NCBI GenBank assembly: GCA_973895155.1
Contig: OZ316899.1
Location: 10,317,035 to 10,381,034 of the forward strand
Length of the DNA stretch: 64,000 nucleotides
Reading direction: 5' to 3'
DNA from: Marsupella aquatica
Lineage: Eukaryota > Plantae > Marchantiophyta
Shown piece by piece: positions 24,724 through 55,725 of the stretch. A model generated the notes under the pieces. It made no database searches, was not told the DNA's origin, and was given only the letters and a program-made list of their open reading frames with translations. Position 1 is the first letter of the stretch. The number at the start of each line of letters is the position of its first letter. Position numbers and translations under genes: made by a program.

Positions 24724-25156
24724 TGTGACACCGCCAACACGGCTTAACCCGTGTTATGCATGTACGAAGTAAACTTAGGAGTCCGTAGCTATTAGCATAA
24801 CTTACAACACAAATTAGCTAGTCATGATGCTTAGGACCGGTTTAGTCAATAATGGGCGTTCACGCTTGGGCTGGCGGCGCTACGCCTAACGCACCGCTGG
24901 ATTAGGGGCACATTATGGTTGTCCACCTTGGATCCGTATAACTGATCCGGAGGCGGCCCTCTAGCACAACCTAACCCGGACCTGAGGGATGGTTGGTACA
25001 CTTTGGGCGTGAGGGGTTCGGCCTATCAAAGCAAGAGGAGTCGATTGGTCGATGCACCACAAGGGTATAAAAGGCAAGCTCTTCCCCGCCTCTGGGTCAC
25101 TAGCTCCCTTTGCGCACCAGCTTTGATCCCAGCTCCTCTGTTTCCCCCTTAGCCAT
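24724..25156 (+). mobile_element. 5' fragment of a family B-type giant LTR
   Basis: Starts TGTGACACCGCC and is colinear with the reverse complement of approx. 35725-36164, including TATAAAAGGC at 25066. Confidence 0.85.
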
Positions 25157-26200
25157 AGTCGTGGAACTCGACTACCTTAACACTTAGCTATGGCGTCGTT
25201 GACTCTGACGCCAAGCTCCCTTATGGTCCAGGCCCGGATAGGCCATCCGGGGAGGACTTAGCATGGGGAGACTTGTGGGCAATGAGACGTGGCACTGGCA
25301 AAGGCAAGGCGCCAACTGAAGTTGATGACACACACTAAGGACTTAGACTAGCTGAGAGCTGGTCATGTAAAGGGGAAAAGGGTTAGGCTCAAGGTTGAAT
25401 GTCCGGACCCCCGGACGGACTTTGAGTTCTAAGGGCTTGAGTGAGAGCTCATCTTGGGCCCAAGGCCAATGGAGTTGACGCCATGGGCAACGGAAGCTTG
25501 GGGCGCGAGTTATGGCCTGATCCGGGTTTGGCCGATTGGGGGTCCAAGCGGCGATAAGATTTGAGGGCCTAGGCATGAGCACTGGGTTGGCCTGATCACA
25601 ACGGGCTAAGGCATTCTGCTTGCGGACGCCTAACAAGAAAGTTATGGGCGTTGCCAGTTGGTGGCGCACCCAGACATGCTGGATAGGATCCGGGTTGTGG
25701 CCCAAAAAGTTGAGGACCAAAGTTGGTCTAGGGGTGGCAGGTCTCCAAAAGCATATATGAGGAGAGTGGTGCCTCCCTGGGGGCTAAGGGTGAGCCGAAG
25801 TCGTGAGCCTCGGCGGTAGCGACACTAAAGGAAAACGCCGAACGGAAATGGCGATAACTTCCCAACGGGAAGTCCATTGGAAGACTTCTTGGGTGCGTTA
25901 AAAATCTCTCAAGGAGGACTACATCCTCCTGAGCTCAGCTAGGTCTGGGGGTGCCATAGGTTCTTGAGGTTTGCGGGTGTTGTCACGCCCGCTTGTCAAA
26001 TCCTACCGAAATAGCAGCCAAGTCGCGTTCAGTCTCCCAAGGGAGCTTGCGTTGGGGAGGCAAGGCCAAGTAGGCACGGAGGTTGAGTTCCAAGGGAACT
26101 TGGCCCCTAGACAATCAGCGGGGCGAGAACCGGGAGTCGATTGCTAGAGTCGGGGCCATTTTGGTCCCGGCGTGTTGGGACAAGCTTTAGGACAAGCTAC
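25157..26200 (+). mobile_element. Family D LTR, 3' truncated by the next insertion
   Basis: Starts AGTCGTGGAACTCGACTACC; colinear with 57442-57612 + 62280-63140. Confidence 0.9.
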
Positions 26201-27358
26201 AGTGGAGAAGCAATATGGAGGAATCTAGTGGAAATGGTATATTTTAAAACTTTTTGACTTTACTTGAAGCTTCCCCAAGTCAATTACTTACCCCTTAATA
26301 CATTTAAGCCTCGAAGGATCATTCTGGAGAAAGTTGAGGAGTTTGGATTTTTTCCGGAAAAATCGCTTTCAAAGCTCTCCGAAAGAAATTTCTCAGAAAG
26401 CTATCCGAAAGAAATTGCTTTGAAAGTTGCAGAATCGGTTTAGACTTTTGGCAAGAACTTTGACGGACGATTGCAGATCGACCCAATGTCGGTTTGAGGA
26501 GAGTTTTAGTGCGTTGGAAAGGTATTTCCAAAGGCTACCATGGGAATTTTAGTTTGGAGCCAAACCACCAATTTCAAAGTATACCAAATTGATTCTCCGA
26601 GATATTCGGCATACATTACTTAAATTGTTTTACCTCACGTTTGCACCTCTTGAACTTTTCCATTAGTTCATTAGAGTAGGATATAGAGGGACATAGTTTA
26701 GTACACCCTTAGGAATTAGATTTAGAGAGTCTTAGTTTCATCTCACCTTTTAGGACTTTAAATTTAGATAAGAAAAGGTTTGTAGACTTTTAAACCTTTT
26801 GGCATCTCAAGCCTTTTGAGGGAGCCTACAATTGGACTCCCAAGACCATTTTCATTGTCTTTTCCTTTGAATATTAATCTCTGACTATTTTGGGTCTTTC
26901 TCTCATGCCAATCTTGGGATTAGGAGAGAAGATTAAACCAGAAGAGATTGTACCACACCTATGCATTGAAATCATATCATTTACCTCAGTTTCATGGATG
27001 AATGTCATAAGAAACATGGATTTGTAAGAGAAAACTTTGATATCTAGGGAAAGGAGAATTGTAGTGAGTCATTGGACGGAAAGCCGATCTCTATTTGGGT
27101 ATGTGGAAGTCTATGATGAGTGAAAATCAAACTACCTATTGATAAGAAGTTAGACTCTGTGAATTTATTGATCTAAGAGTTTATTGGAGAATCGTTTTAG
27201 GATTCTGGAAGAAGAATGAGTAAAGCAATCGCTATAGGATTTTGAACACCACAAAACTGGAGTAAAACGCTTCACTTATTCCTTACGGGACCGAATCTTG
27301 GTTGGTTTGAGCAAGGTCTTACATAGTTGATGTTGTTCTACTCACCACATATTCTTTT

Positions 27359-27376
27359 TGGCGCCGCTGCCGAGGA
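27359..27376 (+). other. Primer binding site, Athila-like TGGCGCCG(T/C)TGCC type
   Basis: TGGCGCCGCTGCCGAGGA preceded by a T-run. Confidence 0.7.
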
Positions 27377-28494
27377 ATAAATCAAAAGCAATTTATGAAG
27401 GAGGCCAAGTGAATTGGCCAAAAGAAAGATTGAAGTATAGACAGACAATCAATTTCAATATGATAAACTGATTGTACAAGACCAAGGGAGAAATTCACAA
27501 CAAGAGGAGGATTCAACAGGGAGACAATCGGATTGACTCCTGAAGGAACATATGCTTTGTAAGTATGGACGATTCAATGTTGTTTGGCTTTCCTTTTACA
27601 TTTAAAGTAAAACTTTTCTCAATAGACAACGCTCCTTCAGCCTTAGTTAAGTTATTGAAAGAAAAGGAAAAAAGGGAGATAGCAAAAGAGGAAATTAAGG
27701 GGAAGACCAAGAAATCGCTTAGCAAAGTAAAAGCACCTGCTAGCAAAGGATCTCCATTACCACCTCTGAATTGAATGGACCTATTGGCCTTAAGGTAAGT
27801 AAATATTTTCACTTAACCTTTGTAAATTTTAGTTAGGCTAGAAAAGTAAAGAGAGAAACCGATTCTTAGCCAAATTAATGGAGAAAGCTTGGTAACAATT
27901 GGTTCAGACTGATACATCATTTTCTGTTGTTGTATTTTTCTTTCTTGCTTCCAATGAAATTAATCAGTTGGGGAGAAAGATCGCTTCCTTAATTTTAGAA
28001 TTTTGGGATATGGCAAGAATCTTTAGTTTATATGCAGAGATTTCATGAGTAGGGACATTACCAACCCTTATGAACGAGAAAAGAGATATAATAACCGGGA
28101 ACAAAAGAAATTGACCCCACCTGAGAAGGTCAAGATCAAACTCAAGTGATAGAGGTAAGACTAGAATCACGAAGACTAAGCCAGTGCCATATGTTGATCT
28201 TACAAGACATAGAAGTGAGAGGTAAATTGAGGAAGATGTGGATAATCTAAATAGTCTTAGTGATTTTGAAGAGAGGGAACAATCAGTTTTACCAGAATTG
28301 CCTACTGTTGCCAAAAAGGTTCAACATTTAGAAGAGTTGGTGAATCAAGGTGCGCTTGAGGGAGAAAGGGCTAATCAATTGATAGGAAAGTTAACTTAAT
28401 CTCTAAAAGATCTCTACTTGCGCCAATTAAGGTAGGAAAGAAATCGTTTGTTTCATTATCTTTTGGGTCCTCTAGTGTCCATCCTCCTTCCATC

Positions 28495-29945
28495 ATGACA
28501 TCCTCTACAAGTCTGAAATATACGGTTTTCAAAGGAAGAGGCCAAGATCCAGATGATTGGCTGGGCAAAATTTTGTCAACAGCCAAAACCAACAAGGAAA
28601 ATGCGGATCAAGATCTCTTGCAGATTTTTTAAGGACTCGTAAAAACAAAGCACACAAATGGTATACTCTATCCCTTACCCTGGCTATTCAAGGAAGCTGG
28701 CCTGATTTGCAAAACGCTTTTAGGAAAGAATTTAGAGAAGCAGGAGCCACTTCTAGAGTGTTAGCTAGACTTAGGAGAATTTGCATGAGAAAGCAAGGCA
28801 CATTGAGAACTTATTCTCAGAATGTTAGGAAATTAATTCTAAAGATTAGACCTCTGCCTAGTGATGAAATGCAAACCGAGTATTTCACAGGAGGATTGCC
28901 TAGAGAGATGAATAGATACGTTAGAAGATCACACCCTACCAATTTAGGAGAAGCTATTGAAGCAGCACAAGAGTTTGTAGATACTGAAATGTCTCAGAGA
29001 AAAGAATTGAGAAAAGAGGAGAAGAAAGAAAAGGAGAGAGAGAAAAGAAAACAAAGGAAGAAAAGGTCAGGAAATAAAAAAAAAGAAAGAAGTTCTTCTA
29101 GTACCTCCTCTTCATCGTCACAATCTAGTTCCTCCTCTTCCTCCTCTTCATCATCCTCATCCGATGATGAGTCCACTTGCCATCATAGAGATAAAGGGAA
29201 AGTATATCAGCCTACTAATAATGCGCTCAAGTCTCTCACAAGAGTGAAGAAAACAATTGATGAATTGAGTGGCAAATTTGATAAGCTTTCAGTCAATTTG
29301 GCAGACAATCGCCCAAAGAGGAGGCCTATTCCGGTAAATCGACCCAATGTGTGGTGTGCTAGATGTGGAGAAAGAGGCCACTACCCAGTGGAGTGCCCAC
29401 ACATGGGGAGGCAAGCTCAATATATTGTGGAAGAATGGGATGAGCCAGCCTACTATGCAGAAGAACAAGAAGAGATTGACTGGTACGTGGTCAATAATCC
29501 CCCGCCTATGAGAAGGCCAATGGGACCGCCTAGCCCACCAATGGGTTGGAGTATGGGTGGAAGTATGATGCCCAGGCCCATGACAATGAGACCTCCTGTC
29601 AAACCTCCAATGGAGCCACCCGAAGGCTACCCACCTCGTACACAGAGAATCCCAAGGACCTGCTACAATTGTGGGGTAGTGGGACATTATACCCCCGAGT
29701 GCCCTTACCCAAAGGCACCGTATGCATGTACCCCTATATGTGGGAACTGTGGAGAAGAGGGCCACCTTCCGATCAAATGCCCCAAACCAGTGCAGCCAAA
29801 GTTGATGGTGAAGTATGTGAAGGATTCGGAGAAGAAAGAAACGGCTGAAGTCCGAATGATATTTTTAGAAGACACACACCTCATAACTGAGGAGCAGGGG
29901 AACCCTGAGGAATCGATCTCAGTATATCAAACCACAACCCGAAGC
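28495..29945 (+). pseudogene. gag: Gag with Lys/Ser-rich linker and three CCHC zinc knuckles
   Basis: FKGRGQDPDDWL start, capsid-like helices, CARCGERGHYPVEC, CYNCGVVGHYTPEC, CGNCGEEGHLPIKC; frameshift near the 5' end. Confidence 0.88.
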
Positions 29946-29949
29946 GCTG

Positions 29950-30410
29950 GTCGTTGGTGGTGCAAAGATGCACTAGGGTGCTTGCTCAAGGTATTCCGTG
30001 GAGGCAATCGGGCACCAGGGGCACTAAGGGCGCCCGACCGGCCAACCCGGATCATGCCATAACTCGCGCCCCAAGCATCCGTTGCCCATGGCGTTAACTC
30101 CATTGGCCTTGGGCCCAAGAGGAGCTCTCAATCAAGCCCTCAGAACTCAAAGTCCATCCGGGGGTCCAGACAATCGACCTTGAGCCCGGACCTTTTCCCC
30201 TTGACCCGACCAGCACTCGGCTAGTATAAGTCCTTAGTGTATGTCACCAACTTGGCGCCTTGCCTTTGCTAGTGCCACGTCTCATTGCCCACAAGTCTCC
30301 CCATGCTAAGTCCTCCCCAGATGGCCTATTCAAGCTAGGACCATAAGGGAGCTCGGCGTCGGAGTCATCGATGCCAGAGCTAAGTGTTAAGGTAGTTGAG
30401 TTCCGCGACT
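29950..30410. mobile_element. Rearranged family D LTR pieces (plus-strand 3' piece joined to minus-strand 5' piece)
   Basis: 29950-30030 matches approx. 63467-63546 forward; 30033-30410 matches the LTR 5' part in reverse and ends ...TTCCGCGACT. Confidence 0.75.
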
Positions 30411-32235
30411 ATGCCGTTCGGATTATGTAATGCCCCGGCCATGATCCAGAGACTCATGATGAACATCTTCCATGACTTCTTGGGAGAGTTCCTAGAGATA
30501 TTTATTGATGACTTTGCCATATTTGGGACCATCGCCATGCACCCCAAGCATTTATGCTATACGCTACAACGATGTAGGGAAGTGAATTTAAAGTTGCATC
30601 CGGCCAAGTGCTTTTTTGGGGTAGAGGAAGGAGTGTTACTCGGAGTGGTGGACCTTGCCACCCAGTGCCCTCACCAATCCCAGCACCCTCGCCTAAGTGC
30701 CCTTGGTGCCCGAATGCCTCCACGGAATACCTCGGGCAAGCAACCTAGTGCCCCTTTGCACCACCAGCGGCACCTCCCATACAAAGCCGCACTTGCTCTC
30801 CAACACGACCGCTACTCAACGGTCCTCATTGTTTGCACAAGCAACCAAGTGCCTCGGTAAATAACCCTTCAAGATCTAGATCTCCCCAAGTCTAGCATCC
30901 TAACTCAAGTTCAACAGACATTGGTAAGTAGGTTAGCAATAGGTCCTCCCGATGCCATAAGCCGGAACTAGAATGCCCACTTTTTGTCCAGAATAGCTCC
31001 TTCCTTGGGCATAGCCCGGGTTCCCCCTTGTACTTATCCATCACCAACTGACCGCCCTGCCCCCGGGACATGCTCATGGCCCAAGTAGCGTAGCTTGTCC
31101 AAGAGCTTGTCCCAAGCTTGTCCCAACATGTCAGGATCGGAATGGCCCTGACTTTAGCAACAAACTCCCGGTTCTCGCCCTACTGATGGTCTAGGGGCCA
31201 AGTGCCCTTGTAACTCAACCTCCATTCCTACTTGGCCTTGCCTCCCCTACGCAAGCTCCCTTAGGAGACTGAACGCGGCTTGGCTGCTGTTTTGGCAGGA
31301 TTTGGCAAGTGGGCGAGATAACACCCGCACACCTCAAGAACTTATGGTGCCTACAGACCCAGATGATCTCAAGAGGATGTACCCGTCCTCAAGATATTTT
31401 TTAATGCACCCAAGAAGTCCTCCAACGGACTTCTCGTTGGGAAGATATCGCCCTTTCCGTTTGGCATTTTCCTTAGTGTCGTGACCGTCGTGGCTCACGA
31501 CTTCGGCTCGCCCTTAGCCCCCAAGGAGACACCACTCCCCTCATATATGTTTCTGGAGACCTTCCACCCCCCATCCAGCTTTGGTCCTTAACTTTTTGGT
31601 CCCCAACCCGGACCCTATCCCGCATGTCTGGGCGCGCCACCAACCTGCAACGCCCATAACTTCTAGTTAGGTGTCCGCAAGCGGAGTGCCTTGGCCCGTT
31701 GTGATTGGGCCAACCCAGTGCTCATGCCTAGGCCCTCAGATCTCATTGTCGCTCAGGGCCCCCAATCGGCCAAACTTGGATTGGGCCATAACTCGCGCCC
31801 CAAGCGTCCGTTGCCCATGGCGTCAACTCCATTGGCCTTGGGCCCAAGAGGAACTCTTACTCAAGCCCTCAGAACTCAAAGTGCATCCGGGGGTCCAGAT
31901 GGTCAACCTTGAGTCTGGCCCTTTTCCCCTTTGACCCGACCAGCTCTTAGCTAGTCTAAGTCCTTAGTGTGTGACACCAGCTTGTCGCCTTGCCTTCACT
32001 AGCGCCACTTCTCATTGCCCACAAGTCTCCCCATGCTAAGTCCTCCCCGGATGACCTATCTGGGCCTGGACCATACGGGAGCTCGATGTCGGTGTCAGCG
32101 ATGCCAGAGCTAAGTGTTAAGGTAGTCGAGTTCTGTGACTCTCGGGCATCGTGTGTCAAAATGAGGTATAGAGGTGGATCAGGAGAAGGTTACGGCCTAG
32201 ATGGCGGTGGTGTTCAAAAGGCAGTAAGATTGTTT
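30411..32235 (+). pseudogene. pol: Reverse transcriptase fragment (family B-like) split by a solo-LTR
   Basis: MPFGLCNAPA...FIDDF...GVLL resumes as GHRVSK*GIEVDQEKV after 32140; nearly identical to the RT at 37849-38556. Confidence 0.9.
30644..32140 (-). mobile_element. Complete family D solo-LTR (1497 bp) with AGT...ACT termini
   Basis: 5-bp TSD CTCGG at 30639-30643 and 32141-32145; removing it restores the RT reading frame. Confidence 0.93.
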
Positions 32236-33092
32236 TGTCACGCCGAAAGCTTCATCCGTACACAAATTTTGGCTTGGACGGGCATAATCTTCATTAGTTT
32301 TGAGGGTTCGGGCAAGGAGGGATGTGTGAACTGAACCTTACTCCCGTAATCTAGCGCTAATCCTACTTACATAAATATCATGGGTATAGCTTGTGTTCCG
32401 CCGCCGAAACATACCTTAAGCCAATAACTGGATTGACCCAGGCTTAAGCCTTCGCGCTATCCACCTCTGATCCGGATCCAATGATACAGGTGTCCAACCT
32501 AGGCTCGCAACCACTATCCGCAGTCGACAACCCGTGCCCAGCTCGGATAGTGCGTTCTGCCAAGCATTCTTCTACCCGTATACAAGATTCATACATGCAA
32601 CTGTATTCACAATCATTCAATCTCGGTTTACACGAAGGAAATAGTGGGAAAACACTTTAATTCATAATCCGTCATACACATATACACGGTTGACTTGACA
32701 TCTCTTGAATGAACACGACCAACGGCAGAAAGGCGTACACTACAACGGAGCCCGGCTCCACACTCACCCAGCGAGCTTAGTCGTACCCTCCCTCCTTGAC
32801 GCTCTTTTACTCACAAAGGCTGGGACTACTTGCACATCCTACGAATACCCAGTTCTAAAACTAAAATCCCCCTGCCTCTACCGGGGGGTGGACTAAATAC
32901 TAAGGGACGGGATCCAGAGCGGCCACGTGCCCGAATCTATGGTATCCGAGATTCTAAACTCTGCTAACTGCCAGGCCGTAAAACTGCGTGTCTTATTCTA
33001 AGATTCTAAACTACGAAGGTTAGTCGGATAGGACAGCGTTGCCAACTAGTTTTGGCGCTTGTGCTTATCTTCTGACTTCCCTAATTCTAACT

Positions 33093-35252
33093 CTATCCTA
33101 AACCTACCCCGCCGCTAATGTCTGGCGCGCTTGCCAGACCTGCCCAACTTGGATTTGAGCGGCCATCCCACTGCCTCCTAAGCCGGTTGGCGTCCTGCTT
33201 GAGCAGCTGGACTTGGTCTAGCAGAGATTTGTTCTCTTGCTTCGTCGTGTCTGTCTCCTCCACGGCTTCCTGGCATGCCTCTTCCAATTGTTGGGCGTTG
33301 CTCGTCAGCTTGTCCACCAATTGGGCCTATTTTGTGGCATCTTCTTGAAGTCGTGCTACCTCTGCCTTCAGGGCGTCCAGCTTGGCTGCGTCTTGCTGGG
33401 CCCGGGCGTTTGCTTCCTCCGCATCTTTTTGCCAGATGACGGCTTGTCCCTTCAAACCATCAATCTGGGTCCAGAGCCGTGCAATCTCGACATCCCTCCC
33501 AATTCCGGCCTATTCTGCCAAGGCTTCTCGGGCCCCAGCTTTGGCCGCTTGCTCCAATGCGGCCGCTAACTGAGGTCGTAGCAGTTGAAGCTCGGTTTCT
33601 CGGGCTGAGGCTTTGTTTTTCAGGTGGGTAGCCTCAACCCAATACCGCTCTATCTTCCGCGTAAGCTCAGTCTATGCATGCCCTACTCGTACTACTGCAA
33701 CCAATTCTTGGTTGACAAAGTAGGCCACCTTTCGTGCCATCAACTCCCCTGTATCCCGCGCAATTTGTTGGGAGAAGTCACCCAACAACCCATTCAAAAA
33801 TGTGCCCGGTGCAAAGAGTTCCAAGTACTCCAGGCTATGCCCACTCGGGTTCGGGCAAGGACAGACCCCAACTTGCGCGGGGGTTGGAGTGGTGACGTCC
33901 AGTCCCTAGACTATGAAGACAGAGGGGGTTGGGTTCTTCGCAAGGGATGGGGAGTTCTTGTGGACAACCGTGGAGGGTATCGGGGTGTCCTTCGTAATCA
34001 TAGTCTCAGGCCCGGGGCCGGCTTCCTCCAGCCCGACTTCGATGGTTGCGCTGGCTTGGTTGATCGAATCCAGGGAATATAACCACATTGTCCGATATAG
34101 AAGGAGGGGCCCCATGGCCGCCGGACTTTTGGCCTTGGGTTGGGGTCGCCTTTCTTGGGCCGGGAATACCCACCGTGATGGGGTTAGCTTGGGCTTGTTG
34201 AGCCATGGGAGGTTTTGGTGGTCAAAACAGGCGTACCACTCGATGATTATTTTGATGTGGTTTGCAAGGTACACCTTTCCACCAAGGTATAAGGTCTTTC
34301 TTCGTCGTTCCATCTCCTCGTGGAACTTCTTGACGAAGAAAGAAGCCCACTTCCTAGGCCGGTAGTTCTCGACCTAGATTACTTGGGCGGAGGATATTTT
34401 GCCCCTTGGCTCCATCATGTGAAGGGCGTACCTCTGGAACTCCAACCGCTCCGCTATCTCCGGGATGAGGCATGTCCTCATCAAGAATCCGTTGTCCAAT
34501 GCTCCTTCGGCCGGGAAGCTAGAGGACTGATACTTGGCTCCCTTGCCCCCAGGAGCCCGTGATTCTACCCGGTTTACTCCCTTGGGTAGGCCAAAGATCA
34601 TCTTGAGCCGTGCCTCACTTAGGGACATCACTCTCCCATGTGCACGGGTTTGTTGGCGGGCCTCGTCAAAGTTCTGGACAAACTCCGTCATATCCTGCCC
34701 ATAATACCTGCAAGTATTCCAAGGGAGAGCGGCGAAATGCTCAAACCCTTGGGTCTTCAGATAGCATGCCTGGTTGGGGTGGAGAATGTTCTTGTGGACA
34801 TTCTCCCCCATGTGATGCATGTTCAGCTTGGCCACCGCAACTGTGGCCAAGGGCAGCCCATATATAGCCGCGGGTTCCTTCCTCTTCCTACCCCAAGACT
34901 GGTTTTTGGGGTGACTTGTAGAGGGGGACATCTCCCAGTCCTCTCTATCAGGTGGCAGTGCTACCGCCGTAAGTACTGGCGTTGGGGCCGCCACTGTCAT
35001 CGCATTGTCCATCGAGGCTGCCGCCTGGGTTTGTTGATGTGTCGAAGCGGTACCCAGCCCGGCCCCATAAGAACCTGGTGAATTGTGGATAAGGGGAGGG
35101 GCCTCCTTGTCCTCTGAGCTGAGGTTGACCGCATTTACCATGGACTGCACTCGAGCAGATGGTGCAATGGGCGGTGGGGAACGGCGAGATGGATGGCGAG
35201 GCGGAGTTTGTGCCGGTGCTGGCGAGCTGGTTGGAGCTGGAGGGGGTGCCAT
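33093..35252 (-). pseudogene. LTR-encoded protein, family B (same domain + coiled coil), disrupted; may extend upstream to ~35690
   Basis: GFEHFAALPW...EFVQNFD...TRAHG...IFGLPKG...NGFLMRTC...PRGKISSAQV aligns with GLEAFVKLPW...EFMGSWE...TRVYG...VFGLPMG...NGFFQNTC...PRAEIGKAQV of family A; coiled coil at approx. 33093-33600. Confidence 0.85.
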
Positions 35253-35796
35253 AGGACTCCAAAATTTAGAAGGGAAGCCAAGGGATGTCAGTATTGAGGG
35301 CTCGCCGGACTCGGACTTTGATTAAACCAAAAGTTGGGGTAGGATTGAACTCGGGCAGTTATATCGTCAAAGTGATGACGTTGGAGATCCACCGTGCCCG
35401 GGATCCTGAAGACTTTGTCCGGGAGTCAGACGAGCGCTTCTCCAAAGCCAAGGTAATTTGGGCCGTCAAAGAAGAATTTGGTGATCTCCTCATTCTGTAA
35501 GTACTTGCTCTCAAACGGGAGGCTGAAGTTGTTGTTGTAGTGTGAGTGCGCATTGCTATAGATAAGTTGTTCGTACTCTCTCTCGGCTTTGTATCTGCGT
35601 GGATTGTGTCCGGCGAGTGATTTCGCAAGATGGCTCCCAATGTGTAGAAATTGAAACCAAAAACAAATGGCGGAAGTGGACATAATCAAGACCGACATAA
35701 GGCGTGGTGTGTATGATCGCTCCAAGGAAAACTAGAGAGTTTGGGATCAAAGCTGGCACGCGGAGTGAACTAGTGGCCCAAGACGGGGAAGAGCTT

Positions 35797-35806
35797 GCCT
35801 TTTATA
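35797..35806 (-). promoter_or_regulatory. Candidate TATA box of family B LTR, upstream of the LTR ORF
   Basis: TATAAAAGGC, also conserved in the diverged fragment at 25066-25075. Confidence 0.6.
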
Positions 35807-36199
35807 CTCTTGTAGTGCATCAACCGATTGGTTCCTCCTGCCTGTGATAGACCAAGCCCTTTGCGCCCGGGGGGTACTAACCACTCCGCAGGTCCAGGTC
35901 AGAGCGTGCCAATGGGCCGTCTCTAGATCTGTTATACAAATCCGAGGCGGACCGCCATAACGCGCCCTTAATCCAGCGGTACGTCAGGTGAAGCACCGCC
36001 AGCTCAAACACGAATCCCCATTATTACTAAATCCTGTCTTAAACATCATGACTAGCTAATTTGTGTCTTTATACTAATAACGACAGGCTACAAAGTCTAC
36101 TTCCAATGTACGTAACACGGGTTGAGCCATATTACTCATTACCAGCCGTGCGGGCGGCATCACATAGCTCCCTACTTAACTGTGAAATGTCCTCGCAAA

Positions 36200-39100
36200 C
36201 ATTGCTATTGGTGGTAACATCTTGATGATGGTACTTTTTCACATGATCATAACTAACTTGTGTGGGAAATAAGTCTCCAGCGTACGTTGCAAGCTCAATG
36301 GATCTGTTTGGGTAAATCTGATTGACAAGGAAAGGTCCCAACTAGCGAGTATGTAGCTTCCCAAGAAATTGCATGTACCTGATATTGTACAGAAAGACAG
36401 GTTGCCTGTTGCGACGTCGATCTTCCGTAGTCGCTTGTCATGCTGCTTCTTGGAAACTGCCTGTTGCTTTGCTGCGTGTCGGGCAGCTAGTACCCGGGGC
36501 TTCTTCTAATGCTTCAATCTGGTAAGCTCTGTCCGAAGAACTATCGGCCTTGGATAAGCGATCCCAAATACTCACCCGTGGCGTGTGAATTTCAAACTCG
36601 ACCGGAACCAACAAGTGTTGTCCGAACACGAGAAAGTACGGATTGTGACTGGTAGTAGTCTTGTAAACCAAGTTGTACGAGTACACAACAGCGTATAACT
36701 TGTCATCCCAATGTGTTTTGTGTGCGGCTACTGTTTTGTTGAGGATTTTCCCAATGATCCCATTTGCCCTCTCTGTTAGTCCGTTGGCTTTTGGATGGTA
36801 AGGGGTGGTCTTGCGGTGCTTGACTAGGTACCATTCCGTGAGGCGCTCTACGGTTTCATATGAAATGCGTTCCCTGATTGCTGACTAACTCCAAGGGTGG
36901 CCCGAAGCGGGTGAAGATTTGTTCATACAAGAACTTGGCGCTGGTAGTGGCATCATCCTTTACCGTAGCACAAGCTTCCACCCACTTGGTGGAATAGTCT
37001 ATGGCTAGCAGGATGTACTTGCACTTGCATCTTCGCGTAACTGGAGTGAAGGGCCCAATGTAATCAATGCCCCATTTCTTGAATGGTGCTAGTGGAAGTA
37101 CGGAAGTGAGTGGGTGGTTGTGGGCTTTCCTTGGGGCGCCAGCCCGTTGGCATAAATCGCACCCTTTGATAAAGCGTTGTACATCCCGATGTAACGTAGG
37201 CCACCAATACCCCAAATCCAAGATCTTACAAGCAGTAGTGATGGCCGCAAAATGGCCTCCGGCTTCCTCTTTGTGTAGGGCCTACATAACAATGAGCGTT
37301 TCCTTGTATTCCAGGCAACACCGTAGCTTCCCATTAACTCCTTTGTGCAAGTGGCCCTGTATCATCATATACAGCCCGGCCTTATGTAAGAACACAACAA
37401 CGGCCTCCTGATTAATTCCATCAAGGATGCAGCCCATAAGGACGAACGTACCATGTGGGTGTGCCTGCCCCTACGTGGAATAATTCCTCATCAGGAAAGG
37501 TATGGTTAATAGGCTGATCAACAGGTATGCCGTCCAATTGTGAAAAGAAATCGACATTGAGGTGTGCCTTCCCTGGCCAAACCCATACCTTGTAGTTAAA
37601 CTCCTGTAAGAGCGATACCCACCTGGCTATCCGTCTCGTGACATCTGCTTTGTTCACCATATACTTTAAACTATCATGATCCGTATGAAATATGACTTTG
37701 TATCCAAGCAGGTAGTGTCAGAACTTCTTACACAAATAGATAATGCCTAGAGCCTCTCGATTGGTAGGGGAGTAATTTTTCTTGGCCATAAATAGCTGAC
37801 GGCTAGCAAAATAGATGGGGTGGTCGCGACCGTCCTCGTCAAGCTGGCTTAGTACGGACCCAATGTAAAACCCCAAACGTCAACGTACACATGGAATTCT
37901 TTATTCCAATCTGGGGTTACCATGATAGGTGCCATGGTGAGTCGGCGTCGGAGTTCTTCAAAGGCTATGCGCCTCCGGGGCGTTTCTTCAATCACCGCAT
38001 CCTTCTTCATCATCTCGGTTAGGGATAACGCAATTTTAGCAAAATCTTTGATGAATCGGCGATAGTACCCTACGCAGCCCAGGAATGACTGTACTGCTTT
38101 TTGATCCACAGGGAACACTACTACCATCCGGGCCGCAACCTTCTCATGGTCTACCTTGATACCCCATTTAGACACATGATGCTCGAGTAACACCCCCTCC
38201 TCTACCCCGAAAAAGCATTTAGCCGGATGTAGCTTTGAATTCACTTCTCTGCATCGTTGTAGGGTACGGCATAAATGTTTGGGGTGCATGGCGATGGTTC
38301 CAAAGATGGCAAAGTCATCAATAAATATTTCCAAGAATTCCCGTAGGAAGTCATGGAAGATATTCATCATGAGTCTCTGGAACATGGCCGGGGCATTACA
38401 CAGTCCAAACGGCATTCTGAAAAATGCGAACATCCCCCACTCCGTGGTGAACGTTGTTTTAAGCTGATCCGAGAGTCGGATCCAGATTTGATTGTAGCCC
38501 AAATATCCATCGAGGAACGTATAGATTTCATTACGGGCTACCATATCTAGAACCATATACGTGAATGGTAACGGGTAGTGATCCTTCCGGGTGGCGTCAT
38601 TTTGTTTATGATAGTCCTGGTAGATGCAAATTTTGAGCTTTTCGTCCGTACCCCCTTCTTCGGCACGATGACAATGGGAGACACCCAGTCACTGGTCATT
38701 ATTGGGTAGATGATATACGCGGCTAGAAGACAATCAATCTCCTCCTTCACCAAGATGGAGTACCTTGGGTTCATGCAACATTGCCGCTGCGGTACGGCGT
38801 GAGCTCCCAAGTTTAAATTGATCGTATGTTCTCCCAACTTGGGGAAGACTCCCGTCAAATTGTGATGGCTCCATGGAAACACATCTTCATACTCCTTGAG
38901 CAGTGCTTGAATGGATTTTTCCGCATCTCCCTTCAGAGCATGGCCTAAGTTGAAAGACTTATCCATCCCAATGGTGTACTTCCGGTAGTGTTCCTTCCTT
39001 ATGACCCCCACTTGATTACGCAAGCTAGGGTCCAGACTTGCATCTAGCTTGGCTAACCAAACTCCTCCGTACATTGGTGGAACCGGAATTGGCTTTGGAA

Positions 39101-39870
39101 TTGGGGTTGCGTCCTCTTGTGGCGGAATGGACGGATCCCAGGAGACTCGTTTCTTATGCTTTGGCATTGGGGTTTCAGGTTTGGGCAATGCTTTGGCAGG
39201 TTCCGGGTCAGTAGGGTCAACATTGGCTCCTTGCTTAGCTGGAGCCGTATCCTCCATATCCTCCGAGCTGATGGCTCGTACTTGCTGTTCATCCATCCGG
39301 GTGCTAGAGAGACTTGGGGTGGTCCCGTCTATAATGTCTTTTGGGTAATTTAGGAGATGCATCTCCCACGTTGCCTTTATTTCAAAAGCTTCTTCCTTGG
39401 AAAGGGACAAAATGAGCTTAATCATATTGAGCTCTCCTTCCTCCAAGGTCTATGAATCATACTCCTCGGGTCCCTGTGGAGTCTCGCCCTGATAATCGTC
39501 CACCGCCCATGATACTCGTACTGTGGGTGTCTTGAATTGTAGCTCCTTCTTGCCTTAGTCCGTGACTACGTGGCCACCGTATAGCCACGGCCTTCCCAAG
39601 AGGACCGGGTAAGAAGATGGTCGGACCGGCCTCATGACCAAAAAGTTTAGAAAAAACTCCACACCTCCTACGAGGGTGAGAACCTTGGTGAGCGTGCCTA
39701 GGGGGAGAACTCTTGCACCATTTGCTAATCGAATAGCTCAGGCTGTGGGTTGATATGTGAGATACCCCAATTTTACAGATGTTTCTTCAGTCATAATATT
39801 GACTCATGCTCCGCCGTCCACGAGAACCATCTTGATGGTATAGCCCTTGATCTCGATCAAGATGTCGGTG
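36200..39870 (-). pseudogene. pol: pol: protease, RT, RNase H, integrase (degenerate)
   Basis: LVDGGA protease motif near 39820; WVSPIVIVPKK, FIDDF; IYFASRQL/IARWVSLLQEF; CDLCQR, WGIDYIGP, LVSNQGTHF, GPF motif. Confidence 0.93.
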
Positions 39871-39989
39871 CCCCCAGGTCTTCGCAGATCATATTACAAT
39901 TTGCAACACCTACACGTGGTAGCCGTCTTCTCCATCGGCCCGTGAGCAACTCTCTCAGTTGTTGTCGGTATTGGGGATTATTCGAGAGT

Positions 39990-42099
39990 AGTTGTCCTAC
40001 TGTTGTTGTGACTGGGCAATTCTTCACATCTTGCCAAATGTCGTATTCCTCCTTCTTTTCTTCCTTTGGCTGCTGCTTTGCTTCCGCTTCCCGCTTCTCC
40101 TACTCTTCTTGTTGAGTGGCCTTATCAAAGGTCTTTATCGATTGCTTTCTGGTACTCTCGTGCTTTGTATGCTTCCAACTGTTTCTTTACCAACTCTTTG
40201 ATGCGAGGATAGAATAGCTTTGGGTCATCCTGACGGTAGTCGTCGTCCTCCTCTGGGGGTATTCTACCGTTGGCTGCCCTGGCGTGGTATCTTGCTTCCG
40301 TCGGCGTTTCTCTTCCTGTTTCTCTTGCTTTCATTTGGATCTGGTTGACACTTGGTAACATTCAGCCTCATTTGATGGATTGGGGTGTTCCGTTACATTG
40401 ACCAAGTTGACCCACTCGGTGGTATCATCTTCCCACTCTATTGCTATCATTTGAACAACCGCATCATTTGGAGCTCGACCACCTGGGGCCTGCCTAGCTG
40501 CACTTGCACGTGCTGCTATTACCAACGGGCAATTAGCTGTGGAATGAGCCTCCGTTTTGCAAACTTGACACAATGGCATGCCTCTGCCGTCTCCTTGCCG
40601 TCTTTGTTCGGTGCATTCCCTCGCAAAGTGACCGGGCTTCTCATAGTTGTAACAAACTGGGGATTGCCAAATCCCTGGCTTCAGAGGAATGCTCGGGTTA
40701 CTTATAACTTGTAAGCCCCTACCATTCAAGTATGGATACGCAATTATGCCAGCCAGATTTCAAGGATCCATCGTGGAGATCTGATACACGGAGTCTGGGG
40801 GATCTTCAAAGAAGTACTCCGTGGACTCCGGTTCTGGCCCCGGGCTGTTGACATCGTCCAATTCCACCTGATGGACTCAATTCTTCCATCTCGGGCATTC
40901 TTACACGACATGCCCCAATTGGAAGCACTTGGAGCACCACGCATGCGCTCGGGTTTTGGACGACTTCTTCTTTCCACAGGCTTCTCCGCAAGATGTACCA
41001 ACAATGCTTTGAGGCAATCAATGATTTTGTTGAGCTTGTATGTTTCAGCAGCCTTGGGATCTGGTAGCGTTCTTCAAACATGGGGCTTGACTTTCTCCTC
41101 CTTAGCGCGTCGTTTCTTCTTCTTGCTCCGCGTCTCGCTCTCCAAATCACTACCCAATGAGATTGAGGTGGAGGAGCCACTGGTCGAAGTTGAATCCAAA
41201 CTAGATCCCATCTCTGAACTGGACGAGGTTGAACAATGTTTCTTCTTCTTCTTGCGCTTCTTCTTCTTCCCATCGTCTGTTTCAGAGTCAATGTCACTGA
41301 AGTTCTGGTACTTGCTCTTCTTATGTCGTGCCCATTGGCTTTGTCGGGAGTTATAGGCGGACTCCCTATATGTTTCGGCGCATGCAATGGCTGCTTGCAT
41401 TGAAATTGGGTTATTCTGGCGTACCCAAAATTGCATATCCGTGGGCAATCCATGTAGAAACCACGTAAGCTGGAGCGCATTGCCTGGTCTGGGCCGGATC
41501 TTGGCAGTGAGTTTCTGGAACTTTTGAATGAATTTTTGCAAGGACTCCTTCCCCATGCAAAGCTGACCAATCTTCAACAAGGAACGCTACTCCGCTCCAA
41601 TGGCACGAAACTCTTGTAACAACGTGGCCTGGAATTGTGGCCATGTGATTCCGGGCTGTAGCGAGTTGTACCATGGATGAGCTTCTCCCCGCATTACTCC
41701 GGGGAGAATTGTCAACTTAATGGCGTCCTCTTTGTTGGCCTTAGTAGTGGCTTCAAACTCATCCAACCATTCATTCGGATCGTCCCCATGACGTCCTTTG
41801 AAAGGTCGGTAATGAAACCATGACTACTGTGATACTTGTGGGGGAGCTTGGGCTGCACAAGCCACAGCCGGAGGGGTTGCCGCCATGGGTACCGGTGGTG
41901 GAGGTGGCGCTGGCAGTGGTGCAGCAAAGGCTGGACCAGGACCTGCTGGACCGGATCCCAAAGGTACTGGTGGTATGTTCATCCGTTGAGGCGATTGTGA
42001 GTCCTCCAAGTCTGAAGATTTGGAGCTTGTTGTGGTTGCACTCTCTTGTTTGCTTGTCAATCTCCTTAAGTAAGCCACTTGAGAATGAGTGACGGGCAT
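39990..42099 (-). pseudogene. gag: Gag of family B with Lys/Ser-rich linker and zinc knuckles (degenerate)
   Basis: MPVTHSQ start, FKGRHGDDPNEWL, CYNYEKPGHFAREC, CQVCKTEAHSTANC; several frameshifts. Confidence 0.85.
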
Positions 42100-42200
42100 C
42101 TACTCTTATAAATGTAATGGTTAGCAACTATCTGGGGCCCAAGGTCCGGTGATCAGGTACATACGCACATGTCTCCATTCTACTATACTTAGAATGCCCC

Positions 42201-42215
42201 CTCCATCTAGCGCCA
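42201..42215 (-). other. PBS of family B
   Basis: TGGCGCTAGATGGAG, 13 nt downstream of the 5' LTR end. Confidence 0.7.
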
Positions 42216-42274
42216 AAAACAAAGGGTATGTCACGCCAAAAGCTTTGTCCTTACACAAATTTTGGCTTGGATGG

Positions 42275-43106
42275 TGTCGTGCCGAAAGATTTCGGCTCAG
42301 GAATGGCTTTTATAGGGGATGATGAGTGAGGCCTCCCGGTTGGGTTGCGTGCATGCTGACTCGGAGGGGCTACTTGGTTGGATGGATTGAGGTTTGGCGA
42401 TTGGGTGACTCGTCATCACCAGGTTTGGTGTTTGGGTGAGTCACCAGGCTTGGAGTTTGGATGAGCCTCGCTGCTGTCAGCTGGCTCAGGCTGGATGGTT
42501 GGGTTTCCAATACTACTTAAGACTTGAGCCTCGGCTCATTGAGGTTGGCGGTTGTCTATTGAGATCTGTTGAGTTGCGTTCTGTGAGTTCCGCTCTGTTC
42601 TGCAGAACTCGACTGTTGTGCGGCGGTTTTGGAGTTCTGAGTGAGTTTTTGATCCAGGCGGGGAATTTCTCGAGTCTAGAGTCTCGTTGATCTAGGAGGG
42701 GATTTCTCGAGTTTGGAGTCTTGTCGATCCAGGCAAGGATTTCTTGAGTTTGGAGCCTCGTTGGTCCAGGCCCGAGTTCCGTGCGAGCTGTTTTAGACTA
42801 GTGGAGTAGCTAGTAGTGTTTTGGTTTTGTGAGATAAGGAGGATAGTTCTTCCGTCAGATTTTGAGTAGTTAGTCACTCAAGGAGTTCTACCCGGCAAGT
42901 TAGAGGTAGCGGCCCACCGTAGGGCCAGCTACCAGACTCTTGCGGGCAAGCTTACTCAAGGGCACCTATTGTAACCTTTGTGAGAAAAGTTTAAAAATAT
43001 ATAAAGGAGTGAGAGTTTGCTCCAAAAAGTGCTTGTCACCTGTCTCGATTGCAGCCAGAAATGCGTAGTTTGCCCGAGGAGCCCCTAACTTTAAGTCCTT
43101 GCAACA
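42275..43106 (+). repeat. 5' LTR of family E (832 bp) with internal ~37-bp tandem repeats
   Basis: TG...CA; highly similar to 49016-49616; GATCCAGGC...GAGTCTCGTT units at approx. 42650-42775. Confidence 0.92.
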
Positions 43107-43147
43107 TTGGCGACCATACTGGGGATTCCTTGGGGCGATTGGATGAG

Positions 43148-45564
43148 ATGGGTGACTATGACAAAGTCGATCGGATATCGAGCATCCTCATGTCGATGAT
43201 GAGAACCATAAGGAAGGAAGAGCTTGAGTCGGAAAGGGTGAACAGGGAAGCAAATAGAACTACTCGGTGTCTCCAAGAGGTTCTAAAAGAGAATGGGCAG
43301 TTCGATAGGAGAAATGTGACAAGCTACCTTAAGTCTTACTTGACAAAAGCAGCTGTCTACAAGTTGGACGAAGGGACGGCCGTGAAAGAGTTCATGGTGC
43401 TGGTTGAGAAGGAGTTGAGTTTGACGGTGTGGACCATCGTTGAGTCAGCTGAGGGCTGGGATGACTTCAACCAGAAGATGAAAGAGGAGTTGTAAGCGGA
43501 GGATGCTGACCGGGTCACGCAGGCTACCTTCTTGGATTGGGTGAATGACAGGAACAAGAAGCTGAAGGGGCCGCAAGAGCTCCTAAGGGAGTTCAAGAGA
43601 AGGGTGTCTCAGTTACCCAAGCGAGATGTGGGAATCATCGAGTTGCAGTGCTCGATGCTCTTCTTGAGGGCAGCTGATGAGGACCTTCGAGAGGAGCTTG
43701 AGAACGCGATGGAGCTGCTGGAACCTTCAAGAGTTACCTTGTCTAACACCTGGGACCAAGTTGAGAAAGTGGTGTCGAAAGTGAGCAATCGACACCGGCG
43801 GCGAGAGCTAGACAAGGAGGCTACCACTCTCGACCTAAGGCCGCCGGAACCGATATTGAGGAAAGGGAAGCGAGAACCAGTGAAGGATGAGATCAAACCA
43901 TCGGTGGATGATCTCGCAGAAATGATGCAGAACCTGAAGATCTTGGCGGCACATGCGGTCGAGAATCCGAAACCGAGGGTTGCGAGTGCTCCCAAGAGGA
44001 AGCGAGAGATGTAGAGTTGGCCATGCATGTGGTGCGATAGCAAAGAGCATGACAAACGGGAGTGCCTGGACCTGAGGGAAGCTACGGATAAAGGGCTGAT
44101 CAAGTTTGTCGGTGAAGTTGGTCAGAAAAAGATATCGTTTGCCGATACTGAGGAGCCAATTCCATTCAACTCCAACAAGGAAGGCATGAAGGCTTTGGCT
44201 GAGAAGCGAGCTGGGAAGCGAGTCAAAGAGGCGTCCTCTTCGCACCTGGAAGCGAATGTTTACAATGTGGAGTTGGATGGCCCCGTGATGGAAACGGACA
44301 AGTTTTACAAGCGCTTGGCGGATCTGGTGCGAGAGAGATCCGGCCGGTGCTGATCAATGCGATGACGATTGAGGTTGGGGCTAGTTGGGATGCCTTGGTC
44401 GAGTCAAAAAGGAAGAAAACCGACGAGGATGACACTCCATCTCAATCAAGGGAACGAGAGAGGCGAGATACTCGAGACAAGGAAAGGAGGGTTAGGTTCA
44501 AAGAAGAGGAAATGAGCGAGAAAGAGCCAGAGAAAGGGAAACCGATAAGGAAGGACCCGGGCTGGGTGCTTGGCAGGGACGTGGACCAGGCCATGTACTC
44601 GGAGGTTGTAGTTGAGAAGTTCTGGAGCCAATAGGCTCAAGGGTTTACCAACGCCGAGTTCTTTGGCAGTATGAGGCGGGAGATCTAGGAAGCGATCTTG
44701 GAGAGATCCAAGAGGAAATGGATTTACAAAGAGGGCCCTCACACCTTGATGGGGGAGGCTGGCAAGATGGAAATTGGGAGTTTCCAAACTTACACTGCTG
44801 GGGTGTCCATGGGTTCAGGTAGTAAGCTTGCTGGCCCCGAAGAGTCAGACTTGGGGGAACCGAAGAGGGTCAAGTCCCTTGAAGAGGAGCTCATGAACTT
44901 GGACGATGAGTTCTTCGATGCAGAAGAGGAGCTCATGGGAACCGGAAGCAAAGCTGAGTCTGTGGCAAACAGGGACCCGACCGAAGGGGGAGAACGGGAA
45001 AGCATTACCGCGCAGTCAAGGACCATTCATGTCATGGGCTCAATGAAAGGAAACGGTTATGCTTACCGAGACGGATACTGGGCTCGAGCAAGTCCAGAGA
45101 GCGAGTGCCAGTTGGAAGGAATGGAAGGCAAGGTGCGGACGCTCATTGATACTGGCTCGAAGATCAACTTGATGGATCCAAAGGTGTTTCAAAAGGGGAA
45201 TTGGCCGGTGGACAATGAGTTGCTTTGGAGTGTGAACTTGGTGAGTTCAATGAAGGACTATCTTTGGGGCGGATGTCCAAATGTGATGGTGAAGTTCGAG
45301 AATGTCAAGCAGGCTTGTAACATTTTTGTTCATGAGCACTTGTCATTTTCGATGATACTGGGCATGCCATTCATCACTGAATGGAGGATGGAGACAAAGG
45401 TTCTGGATGATAGTACCTTCATGGTGAAGGTTTGGAGCAAAGATGGGAAAGAGGTGGTTCAATTTCCGGCTGTTTTACCTGGAAACGAGAGGAATAGGAA
45501 AGGGTTGAGGATTGAGAGTGCCGACTCTGGTCCAGGTCCGGAAAACGACTTGGCACTTCGCTAA
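43148..45564 (+). pseudogene. gag: gag-protease of family E (degenerate)
   Basis: GQFDRRNVTSYL capsid-like start, CMWCDSKEHDKREC knuckle, LIDTGSKINLM protease; in-frame stops. Confidence 0.85.
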
Positions 45565-45569
45565 AAAGA

Positions 45570-48500: not shown

Positions 48501-48970
48501 AGGCCTGTCTTGGTTAAGGAAGGGGATTGGGTTCTGGTTTACGAAAGTAAGTTGGACGAGCAACACTTGAGCCGAAACAAGTTTGCTTGGAGGTGGCAAG
48601 GTCCGTATGTGGTGGTTGTTGTTCATGCGAATGCGACCTACACTATTCGGGAGTTGGATGGAACATGACAGTTCACCAAGTACCTTACACAGGGAAAAGG
48701 GTGAAGATCTTCAAGAGGAGGACCGAGAAGGGAATGGACTCAAGTTCCAACTTGAGTGAATTTGAAGACGAGGCACTGGTCCATGCGCATCCGTTGGACT
48801 TGAGTTTTGAAAGTGTCTTGACTGGTTCTGATTCGGACGAGTTGGACTTCGAGTTTCTGGAAAGTGGAGTGCCTAAGGCCGAGTCTGAAGGCTTTGGGTT
48901 TGAGTTTCTTGAGGAGGAAGTAGTCCAGGCGCATGGCTCAAGTTTGGACTCAGACTTAGAGGAAATCTGA
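45570..48970 (+). pseudogene. pol: RT-RNase H-integrase of family E (degenerate)
   Basis: YKTVDKKVRP, LPQGATNS, FIDDV, TVDASP, VETDC, CEICQ, IRADRGE, YNPERNGKSERGH, WQGPY. Confidence 0.92.
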
Positions 48971-49015
48971 TGGATTGGAGCAGACCGGAGGCTGCTCAGG
49001 TTTACTGGGGGAGGA

Positions 49016-49616
49016 TGTCGTGCCGAAAGATTTCGGCTCAGGAATGGCTTTTATAGGGGATGATGGGCAAGGCCTCCCGGTTGGGTTGCGTGCATGCTGA
49101 CTCGGAGGGGCTGCTTGGTTGGATGGATTGAGGTTTGGCGATTGGGTGACTCGTCGTCACCAGGTTTGGTGTTTGGGTGAGTCACCAGGCTTGGAGTTTG
49201 GATGAGCCTCGCTGCTGGCAGCTGGCTTAGGCTGGATGGTTGGGTTTCCGATGCTACTTAAGACTTGAGCCTTGGCTCATTGAGGTTGGCGGTTGTCTAT
49301 TGAGATCTGTTGAGTTGCATTCTGTGAGTTTTGCTCCGTTATGCGGAACTCGACTGTTGTGCGGCAATTTTGGAGTTCTGAGTGAGTTTTTGATCCAGGT
49401 GGGGAGTTTTCGATCCAGACAGGGAATTTCTCGAGTCTGGAGTCTCGTTGATCCAGACGGGGATTTCTTGAGTTTGGAGTCTTGTCGATCCAGGCAAGGA
49501 TTTCTTGAGTTTGGAGCCTCGTTGGTCCAGGCCCAAGTTCCGTGCGAGCTATTTTGGACTAGTGGAGTAGCTAGTCGAGTTTTGGTTTTGTGAGCTAAGG
49601 AGGATAGTTTTTCCGT
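49016..49616 (+). repeat. 3' LTR of family E, cut by the Copia insertion
   Basis: Matches 42275-42855 then switches abruptly to TGTTGTGATAG. Confidence 0.92.
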
Positions 49617-54361: not shown

Positions 54362-54390
54362 GTTTATAGTTGGTATAATTTATGTGGATT

Positions 54391-55387: not shown

Positions 55388-55711
55388 ATTGCTAGATTCT
55401 AGTGGTATAATTTCTTATTGGTAAGCACAAGGTTGCAATTGTATTTGAGTGTCCAATCTCAATTTCATTCAATTGTTGAAATTTGAGAAAGAGGAAATGG
55501 AATTGAAAATTGTAGTTGGTGAATTGTAATTTCTTATCTCAATCGTCCAATTCGTTTCATGTGTAATTTTGATTTATAACCTTCCATCCCCCTTGATTGA
55601 TCTGACCACCGTTGCACCTTCGCCTGCCATAAATCCTTTCCTAAAAGGTTGCCAGTCTATCTCAAAAGAAGAAAGAGGGATGATTTTATAAAAAATTGAT
55701 TCAAATCAGCA

Positions 55712-55725
55712 TCGTGCTGATAACG
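55712..55725 (-). other. PBS complementary to the 5' half (anticodon arm) of tRNA-Ile
   Basis: CGTTATCAGCACGA directly abutting the 5' LTR; no TGG start. Confidence 0.75.

Follow-up and report, generated by a model that had tools for sequence, protein, structure and literature searches.

A 64,000-nucleotide window of contig OZ316899.1 from the liverwort Marsupella aquatica, to which all coordinates below refer, contains on its minus strand an Athila-related Gypsy retrotransposon, here called element B. Its 3' long terminal repeat (LTR) encloses a decayed accessory gene downstream of the polypurine tract (PPT), and units of a second family, A, carry a related open reading frame (ORF) under purifying selection. 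Element B, with its protease (PR), reverse transcriptase (RT), RNase H (RH), integrase (INT) and primer-binding site (PBS), is laid out as follows.

32236–36164, minus strand: 3' LTR of B, 3,929 bp, starting with TGTGATGCC and ending with GTGACA, its two ends pairing as inverted repeats at 8 of 10 positions
32395–32408, minus strand: hairpin motif in the LTR, 173 nt from its 3' end, common to A1, A2, B' and C (described below)
33093–35252, minus strand: accessory gene within the LTR (LTR positions 913–3072), sense, ATG at 35252, 719 codons with five internal TAG
33153–33572, minus strand: C-terminal segment of its product (residues 561–700), proline-free and rich in E, K, Q, R, A and L
34218–34817, minus strand: conserved domain of ~180 aa with a predicted VANC21/PMD-like fold
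35800–35806, minus strand: TATA-like TATAAAA at LTR +359, upstream of the ORF, retained in B' at +343
36165–36177, minus strand: PPT AAGTAGGGAGCTA, 10 of 13 purines, with TGTGATGCC directly after it, at 36164
36219–39875, minus strand: decayed pol (protease region, RT, RH, integrase)
39866–42099, minus strand: decayed gag region
42198–42215, minus strand: PBS-like TGGCGCTAGATGGAGGGG, 13 nt past the 5' LTR end and followed by gag
42229–42274, minus strand: remnant of the 5' LTR (U5 end), 46 bp, 89% identical to the 3' LTR end
42275–55813: nested insertions cutting the 5' LTR, Gypsy E (42275–49616, plus strand) and a Copia element (49617–55813, minus strand)

The domains of element B, gag and then PR-RT-RH-INT, stand in the Ty3/Gypsy order, with a PBS after the 5' LTR and a PPT before the 3' LTR; the PBS-like sequence is probably of the tRNA-Asn type. 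Pfam matched no additional RNase H or chromodomain in the PR-RT spacer or after INT of this decayed copy, and B is colinear with an intact relative that shows neither. Since 42229–42274 repeats the last 46 bp of the B unit and is followed by PBS and gag, it represents the U5 end of the 5' LTR, and the boundaries given in an initial annotation of this DNA, namely a PPT on one side of the 3' LTR and, at 32236, a GTGACA end shared with the 5' LTR, are borne out. Gypsy E starts immediately beyond the remnant, its own 3' LTR is interrupted by the Copia element at 49617, and the right LTR of the Copia element breaks off at 55813 with 88 of its 158 bp present and is adjoined there by a B-like U5 in the opposite orientation. 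The remainder of the 5' LTR was presumably removed by deletion or rearrangement at 55813/55814. Four of the 12 public-contig junctions listed join 42244–42268 in register to 32266–32305, a weak signal that extends U5 by tens of bases only and comes from contigs that need not include the PBS.

Measured against the last residue of an intact relative, integrase homology stops at 36219, ~42 bp before the PPT; element B therefore lacks a 3' internal region. At a stringency that recovers B's own PPT, four sites with a purine tract followed by TGT occur from 36400 to 32236, and the sole one outside the ORF is at 36164. The initial annotation had named a second PPT near 32500–33000 as the mark of a short LTR with an internal ORF, and none followed by TGT was found in the 857-bp tail of the B unit. 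The TATA-like box at +359 is a possible promoter upstream of the B ORF.

Related units elsewhere in the window, some with 5-bp target-site duplications (TSDs), are the following.

1–1704, plus strand: C, the 3' part of a diverged A-like LTR, with the end of a coiled-coil ORF (1–795), a tail and terminal ...CACCACA
12937–17641, minus strand: A1, probable solo LTR, 4,705 bp, TSD GACCT, ORF at ~13842–17263 with two stops and one frameshift
24724–25153, plus strand: B' start of a B-like LTR, 76–77% identical to B, cut by a D repeat
55814–56029, plus strand: B' U5 end of a B-like LTR, 72% identical, carrying the hairpin motif
57613–62274, plus strand: A2, probable solo LTR, 4,662 bp, TSD CACAC, splitting a D repeat
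57989–61363, plus strand: accessory ORF of A2, 1,124 codons with one internal stop, core domain at 58550–59152

A1 and A2 are 83.5% identical to each other. Both begin with the same TGTGATGCC that comes after the PPT of B, and they end in CACCACA or a one-base variant. Neither an internal terminal repeat nor gag-pol was found in A1 or A2, and because of their TG..CA ends, their 5-bp TSDs and the absence of gag-pol we read both as probable solo LTRs. A contig with an empty A1 site, in which 4,710 bp are skipped, was recovered in both of two public runs, from two studies, and the A2 insertion interrupts a D repeat cleanly. Each of the five tails (A1, A2, B, B' and C) carries the hairpin motif, at a distance of 173–269 nt from its 3' end, and the remainder of the window has no further copy, with a search pattern that was built from those same five tails; the closing pair of the hairpin covaries among them. 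Tail similarity scores for A/C and A/B' exceed all 40 shuffles, and the tail of C matches A2 at 60% DNA identity over ~470 bp of non-coding sequence (E 2e-17). The two B' segments were also considered as ends of one element and this was rejected, since their flanks (CTCAG at 24724 and AACCC at 56029) share no TSD.

These data indicate that the ORF-bearing 3.9–4.7-kb terminal units of these Gypsy elements are, with high probability, true LTRs. The initial annotation had placed the ORF inside the LTR, and this placement gains support from an integrase that abuts the PPT, from the TSD-flanked A units, from the empty A1 site and from the B-like unit start at 24724, which sits at a genomic flank without a PPT. 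Several observations tell against it. No element with two full ORF-bearing LTRs was seen, the public contigs being short; two gene copies per full element, as the initial annotation had inferred, were thus not seen in the window, which holds no two-LTR copy of B because the 5' LTR survives as 46 bp only. The PPT of B, with three non-purines in 13, is weak, and a relaxed purine+TG motif occurs once in the tail, at 32566 (2.3 sites expected by chance). Neither PBS nor PPT was found next to an A unit among the 12 of 1,216 loose contig ends listed. Direct similarity between the A and B tails is not above shuffles (31 vs a maximum of 33; 31 vs a maximum of 30), so that the link between them runs via B' and the hairpin motif. 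In addition, a relative close by RT, L001, has a different PBS, and the final 1.55 kb of its 5' LTR contain no comparable ORF; the coding-LTR trait may therefore not extend to all relatives.

On these grounds it might be argued that the coding unit is not an LTR at all: the elements could have short LTRs and an internal 3' ORF, with B rearranged, or A could be a separate mobile unit, either a deleted derivative or a terminal-inverted-repeat element with a 5-bp TSD. The missing two-LTR copy, the loose ends of A, the destroyed 5' side of B and its weak PPT all suit such an account, but TSD-flanked units that open with the very sequence following B's PPT, and that contain neither an internal direct repeat nor a transposase, do not, nor do the B-like start at a genomic flank, the U5 hairpin in common and the tail devoid of a second purine tract with TGT. 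We therefore consider it unlikely. The state of the reading frames raises a separate question. The initial annotation had reported a sense ORF of more than 700 codons in the B LTR; one unshifted 719-codon frame is indeed present, but it holds five stops where shuffled sequences had a mean of 27 and a minimum of 14 (1000 shuffles), which marks a decayed gene instead of an open reading frame. All five internal stops in B and three of the four in A1/A2 are TAG, as expected if TAG were read through or recoded and the B gene were intact. This is extremely improbable, and we reject recoding: no stop is shared by A1 and A2, whose stops fall at different codons, the gag-pol of B has stops of all three types (TAG 5, TGA 4, TAA 2) plus frameshifts, and CpG is depleted (observed/expected 0.57), which fits decay of methylated DNA. 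The private stops and the mixed stop types in gag-pol thus point to decay rather than recoding.

Past selection on the gene is evident in family A. Between the A1 and A2 ORFs the ratio of nonsynonymous to synonymous substitution (dN/dS) is 0.27 (confidence interval 0.23–0.32), falling to 0.10 in the core domain, whereas values of 0.97 and 1.18 are obtained in the remaining sense frames; the A-family ORF is under purifying selection. The leading 87 codons of the long A frame are neutral (dN/dS 0.96), and for the A2 gene a start at 57989, 377 nt inside the LTR, is therefore probable and gives 1,124 codons. The B and A ORFs have a domain of ~178 aa in common (26% identity, E 5e-15), after which come a linker of low complexity and a region free of proline, which in B may form a coiled coil on the proxy of its composition. 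Homology of the ORFs, claimed initially for both A and C, accordingly holds for A through this domain, while for C the protein match is confined to the coiled coil (E 3e-8), its core domain lying beyond the window edge. Clusters of K/R are present in the protein, and basic columns are conserved at R88 and at positions 121, 126 and 135 of the A2 model. No transmembrane segment was detected, the maximum 19-residue hydropathy being 1.17 in B and 0.83 in A2, so that the protein does not qualify as env-like.

A profile of the core domain retrieved 64 homologues at E<=1e-3 among 1.84 billion proteins, CAM6082161.1, CAM6105325.1 and KAL3679715.1 being three of them. Twenty of these were looked up, and the nine with a species name came from two liverworts, Calypogeia fissa (seven) and Riccia sorocarpa (two). 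Two predicted Riccia sorocarpa proteins (P0176 and P0179) combine the same domain with an N-terminal DDE_Tnp_4 (Harbinger-type) fragment; liverwort DNA transposons may carry the domain too, or these gene models may be chimeric. The B and A1 ORFs gave no match in word-indexed protein searches, and a scan with the core alignment confirmed no relative in metagenome contigs (0 of 137 stretches) or viral contigs (0 of 96). A query with P0019 likewise found no viral contig and a single 4-kb metagenome contig (1 confirmed of 27 stretches), which lacks the ORF. The window domains passed the Pfam gathering threshold in no family. Against the Transposase_32, ATHILA and PMD families the best homologue reached E 0.006 and 17 bits (cut-off 45), and the commonest weak match was Transposase_32, in four of 60 members and always below threshold; Atlas leads for the domain were Transposase_32 (0.88) and ATHILA (0.87). 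An equation of the core with the Transposase_32 region of P0001 was tried and rejected, there being no profile match (hhalign probability 0.2; hidden Markov model search of 120 polyproteins). The RT of B is 60–67% identical to Calypogeia proteins and 42–50% to the angiosperm ones in a tree of 29 sequences (B and 28 chosen from 120 listed hits, with no outgroup or REXdb references), where it joins Calypogeia/liverwort and unnamed sequences, split from the angiosperm clade at 100/100. Taken by itself, this evidence from relatives would make a liverwort host likely.

AlphaFold2 models of the domain are confident (pLDDT 92.5 for A2 and 95.7 for B) and identical in topology. In a comparison with 48,161 solved chains, VANC21 bound to its target DNA (9lnk_A) was the sole match above Z 2.5 and covered the whole domain of both models, with Z 7.5 and a root-mean-square deviation (rmsd) of 4.2 over 185 aligned residues for A2 (next row Z 2.2) and Z 7.8 and 4.1 over 186 for B (next row Z 2.5). 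Foldseek ranked a sister VANC21 entry second and third (TMq 0.45 and 0.41), the other listed rows being at 0.20 or below, and a viral fold library gave one unnamed match (A0A890CAY5, E 5e-3, TMq 0.39, rmsd 15). VANC is reported to be structurally related to the PMD proteins MAIN/MAIL1 (PMC13547354; bioRxiv 2024.09.27.615353), and coiled-coil pentamer models have been presented for VANC and the Athila domain (PMC13547354). The gap to the next row, the coverage of the whole domain and the biological fit make kinship likely, and on these models we consider the domain to be probably akin to the VANC/PMD fold.

Some results pull the other way. The VANC21 match stays below Z 8 at 7–10% sequence identity, and Z values of 7.5–7.8 can reflect a common arrangement; even a shared fold shows no function. 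The Foldseek matches to VANC21 have E values of 1.3 and 2.5, the A2 and B models are not independent because they were built from one alignment, and a profile search of PDB sequences returned coiled-coil noise only, with VANC21 not among the matches. No tandem arrays of target motifs in the style of VANC were found in the non-coding parts of the LTRs, where 7- and 8-mer maxima in A1, A2, B and C were no higher than in shuffles and the tandem-repeat program TRF found no such array, in copies that have aged. Every copy of the ORF in the window is broken. Finally, VANC21 is described as binding DNA motifs and demethylating its own family, VANDAL21 (PMC5735166), while host PMD proteins are described as acting in silencing (PMC5418596), and the direction of any effect could therefore go either way.

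We give about an even chance to a model in which an LTR-borne protein with a VANC/PMD fold and a coiled coil helps its family to stay transcribed against silencing. Its starting point is the arrangement observed in B, where pol extends as far as the PPT, beyond which come the ORF and then the U5 end. Under standard LTR replication, priming at this PPT would regenerate the gene in both LTRs, and LTR-LTR recombination would then reduce the element to a solo LTR with flanking TSDs and the gene still inside, the anatomy that A1 and A2 show. A sense 3' accessory ORF of the Athila type could have entered the LTR once priming used a PPT upstream of it. The core is predicted to bind DNA like VANC21, and the protein to oligomerise via its coiled coil and to be nuclear. 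It would act in trans on the LTRs of its own family, keeping or restoring their expression, and gene dosage would therefore track the number of LTRs, solo LTRs included.

Two other functions are compatible with the same LTR architecture. One, which we consider rather improbable, is that the protein acts on chromatin as a MAIN/MAIL1-like PMD factor, in a self-limiting or neutral way, and damps or tunes the element, the self-limiting form amounting to copy-number control by analogy with endogenous MMTV (mouse mammary tumour virus) sag, which protects against further infection. The fold class does include host PMD proteins described in silencing of transposable elements (PMC5418596, PMC13547354), VANC-type motif arrays are missing, and gene-keeping solo LTRs would raise dosage with family size; purifying selection between the A1 and A2 lineages, on the other hand, favours a benefit to transposition, and the only solved structural match is an anti-silencer. 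The other, to which we attach a low but real probability, is an action on element RNA or pre-integration DNA (export, packaging, nuclear import or integration targeting), possibly through the conserved hairpin near the LTR end. Such roles have been suggested for plant accessory ORFs (PMC7264820), and the retention of a covarying hairpin in five of five tails and the K/R clusters would agree with them, but nothing links the protein to the hairpin, and the predicted fold matches a double-stranded-DNA-binding protein over 185–186 residues. The lead towards an anti-silencing function itself rests on a middling match between models and a solved fold, in a family of which no two-LTR copy was seen.

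The surroundings are crowded with further repeats. Repeat family D occupies the following stretches.

25154–26198
30024–30410
30646–32140
56583–56864
57442–57612 together with 62275–63589

The D copies vary in length and are 82–92% alike; four of the five have one end in common (...GTTCCGCGACT or variants), and host sequence is often gone at their insertion sites. They may represent a LINE (long interspersed nuclear element) tail or a Helitron-like element. An Athila-like element F (26199–30023), with an LTR end and PBS-like TGGCGCCGCTGCC at ~27357, a long leader and a gag with zinc knuckles at 28557–30062, is cut by D; the core-domain profile found no match on its LTR part. Plus-strand RT fragments at 30411–30642 and 32141–32218 belong to a second B-like element split by a D copy, and element B is located just after them. 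Of the two insertions in the 5' LTR of B, the Copia element has 158-bp LTRs, 100% identical over the surviving 88 bp, and PBS-like CGTTATCAGCACGA, which resembles the Bianca half-tRNA type, and Gypsy E has ~590-bp LTRs, 91% identical, with 25- and 37-bp tandem repeats. The insertion target of A1 is a CACTA-like element (8384–12936 and 17642–20000), empty copies of which occur in public contigs; its frames at 10254–12853 and 8384–9246 look Tnp2-like and BRCT-like, respectively. The window also contains, at 20944–21300 and 22569–22670, an imperfect palindrome of 330 bp and a pair of 24-bp tandem arrays in inverted orientation. Between PBS and gag, the leader of the related Gypsy L001 (1965–2240) includes an ORF of ~90 codons whose C4 zinc-finger pattern resembles the transcription elongation factor Elf1, a possible case of host-gene capture.

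Solo-LTR formation is taken to disarm a retrotransposon and to leave only non-coding DNA, whereas here it would leave a gene of 700–1,100 codons at every site. It is conceivable, and we suggest it only tentatively, that these liverwort Gypsy elements are equipped with an anti-silencing gene of VANC type that resides in their LTRs. If so, each solo LTR would be a self-contained promoter-plus-gene cassette able to keep the family active even where recombination by the host has eliminated the element itself, and the use of the VANC/PMD/Athila-domain fold by transposons for counter-defence would greatly predate the VANDALs of dicots. The role of the plant accessory ORFs of Athila, Ogre and Retand is described as an open question (PMC7264820; PMC11963269), and the structural match to VANC21 makes the function of such an ORF directly testable in this lineage. 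It also bears on whether the PMD/VANC fold originated in a retrotransposon or in a host gene, a point left open in the discussion of PMC5418596. In genome annotations, LTRs of this kind may pass for host genes and be listed as 'hypothetical proteins', the label borne by the named Calypogeia and Riccia homologues. What appears to be new is an Athila-related Gypsy element with a coding LTR; giant plant LTRs and internal accessory ORFs were already known. No coding LTR of a plant retrotransposon was found in a literature search of titles and abstract openings, with Repbase, REXdb and the supplements of PMC6317226 outside it, and a liverwort genome paper reports Athila, Phygy and Tat domains with no coding LTR mentioned in the passages concerned (PMC12885004).

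Among known systems, element B has several features in common with Athila (REXdb non-chromovirus|OTA|Athila): angiosperm RTs are 42–50% identical, one of them with PF20167 after integrase, extra RNase H and chromodomain were not seen, related A units have 5-bp TSDs, and a sense accessory ORF lies downstream of pol, with weak leads to PF20167 and ATHILA (PF03078). PF20167 (Transposase_32) has been tied to the Athila ORF (PMC11728184). Unlike in Athila, the ORF of B lies past the PPT, inside the LTR, with no extra ORF or long non-coding region between pol and PPT; in addition, the B RT groups with liverwort sequences apart from the angiosperm clade, and the domain of the accessory ORF stays below every Pfam threshold. 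LTRs of several kb together with extra ORFs are also found in Ogre/Retand (Tat) and Retrosat2/RIRE3: Ogre LTRs are given as 1.9–6.5 kb (PMC6431247) or up to about 5 kb (PMC6317226), and for Retrosat2 an LTR of >3.2 kb and 429 solo LTRs are reported (PMC3485330). According to PMC6317226, accessory domains of the PMD and Transposase_28 types occur in 57% of Ogre elements and in 23% of those of Retand. However, the extra ORFs of Ogre/Retand are described as internal, where they precede gag or run antisense in the interval from pol to the 3' LTR, an internal position is likewise given for accessory ORFs with PMD, Transposase_28 or Athila domains (PMC7264820; PMC6317226 and PMC11963269 in the passages on them), and the additional RNase H domain of Tat elements (Ogre, Retand, TatI-III) was not seen in B. 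In Phygy and Selgy, non-chromovirus clades of bryophytes and lycophytes, the polyprotein fills nearly the whole internal region, as in B, but these elements are described as short and without extra ORFs (PMC6317226).

On the protein side, VANC21 of VANDAL21, a Mutator-like DNA transposon of Arabidopsis, is alike in predicted fold, in the layout of a domain plus a coiled coil and in being transposon-encoded. It differs from the present protein in that the latter belongs to a liverwort retrotransposon, is 7–10% identical to it and is accompanied by no detected motif arrays; VANC is described as dicot-specific (PMC13547354). On the side of architecture, MMTV sag offers the parallel of a whole protein gene in the LTR, being located in U3 of both LTRs, and solo LTRs of Mtvs are also reported (PMC12548423). 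In contrast to this vertebrate retrovirus and its unrelated protein, the LTRs described here belong to Gypsy elements of a liverwort and hold genes of 719–1,124 codons.

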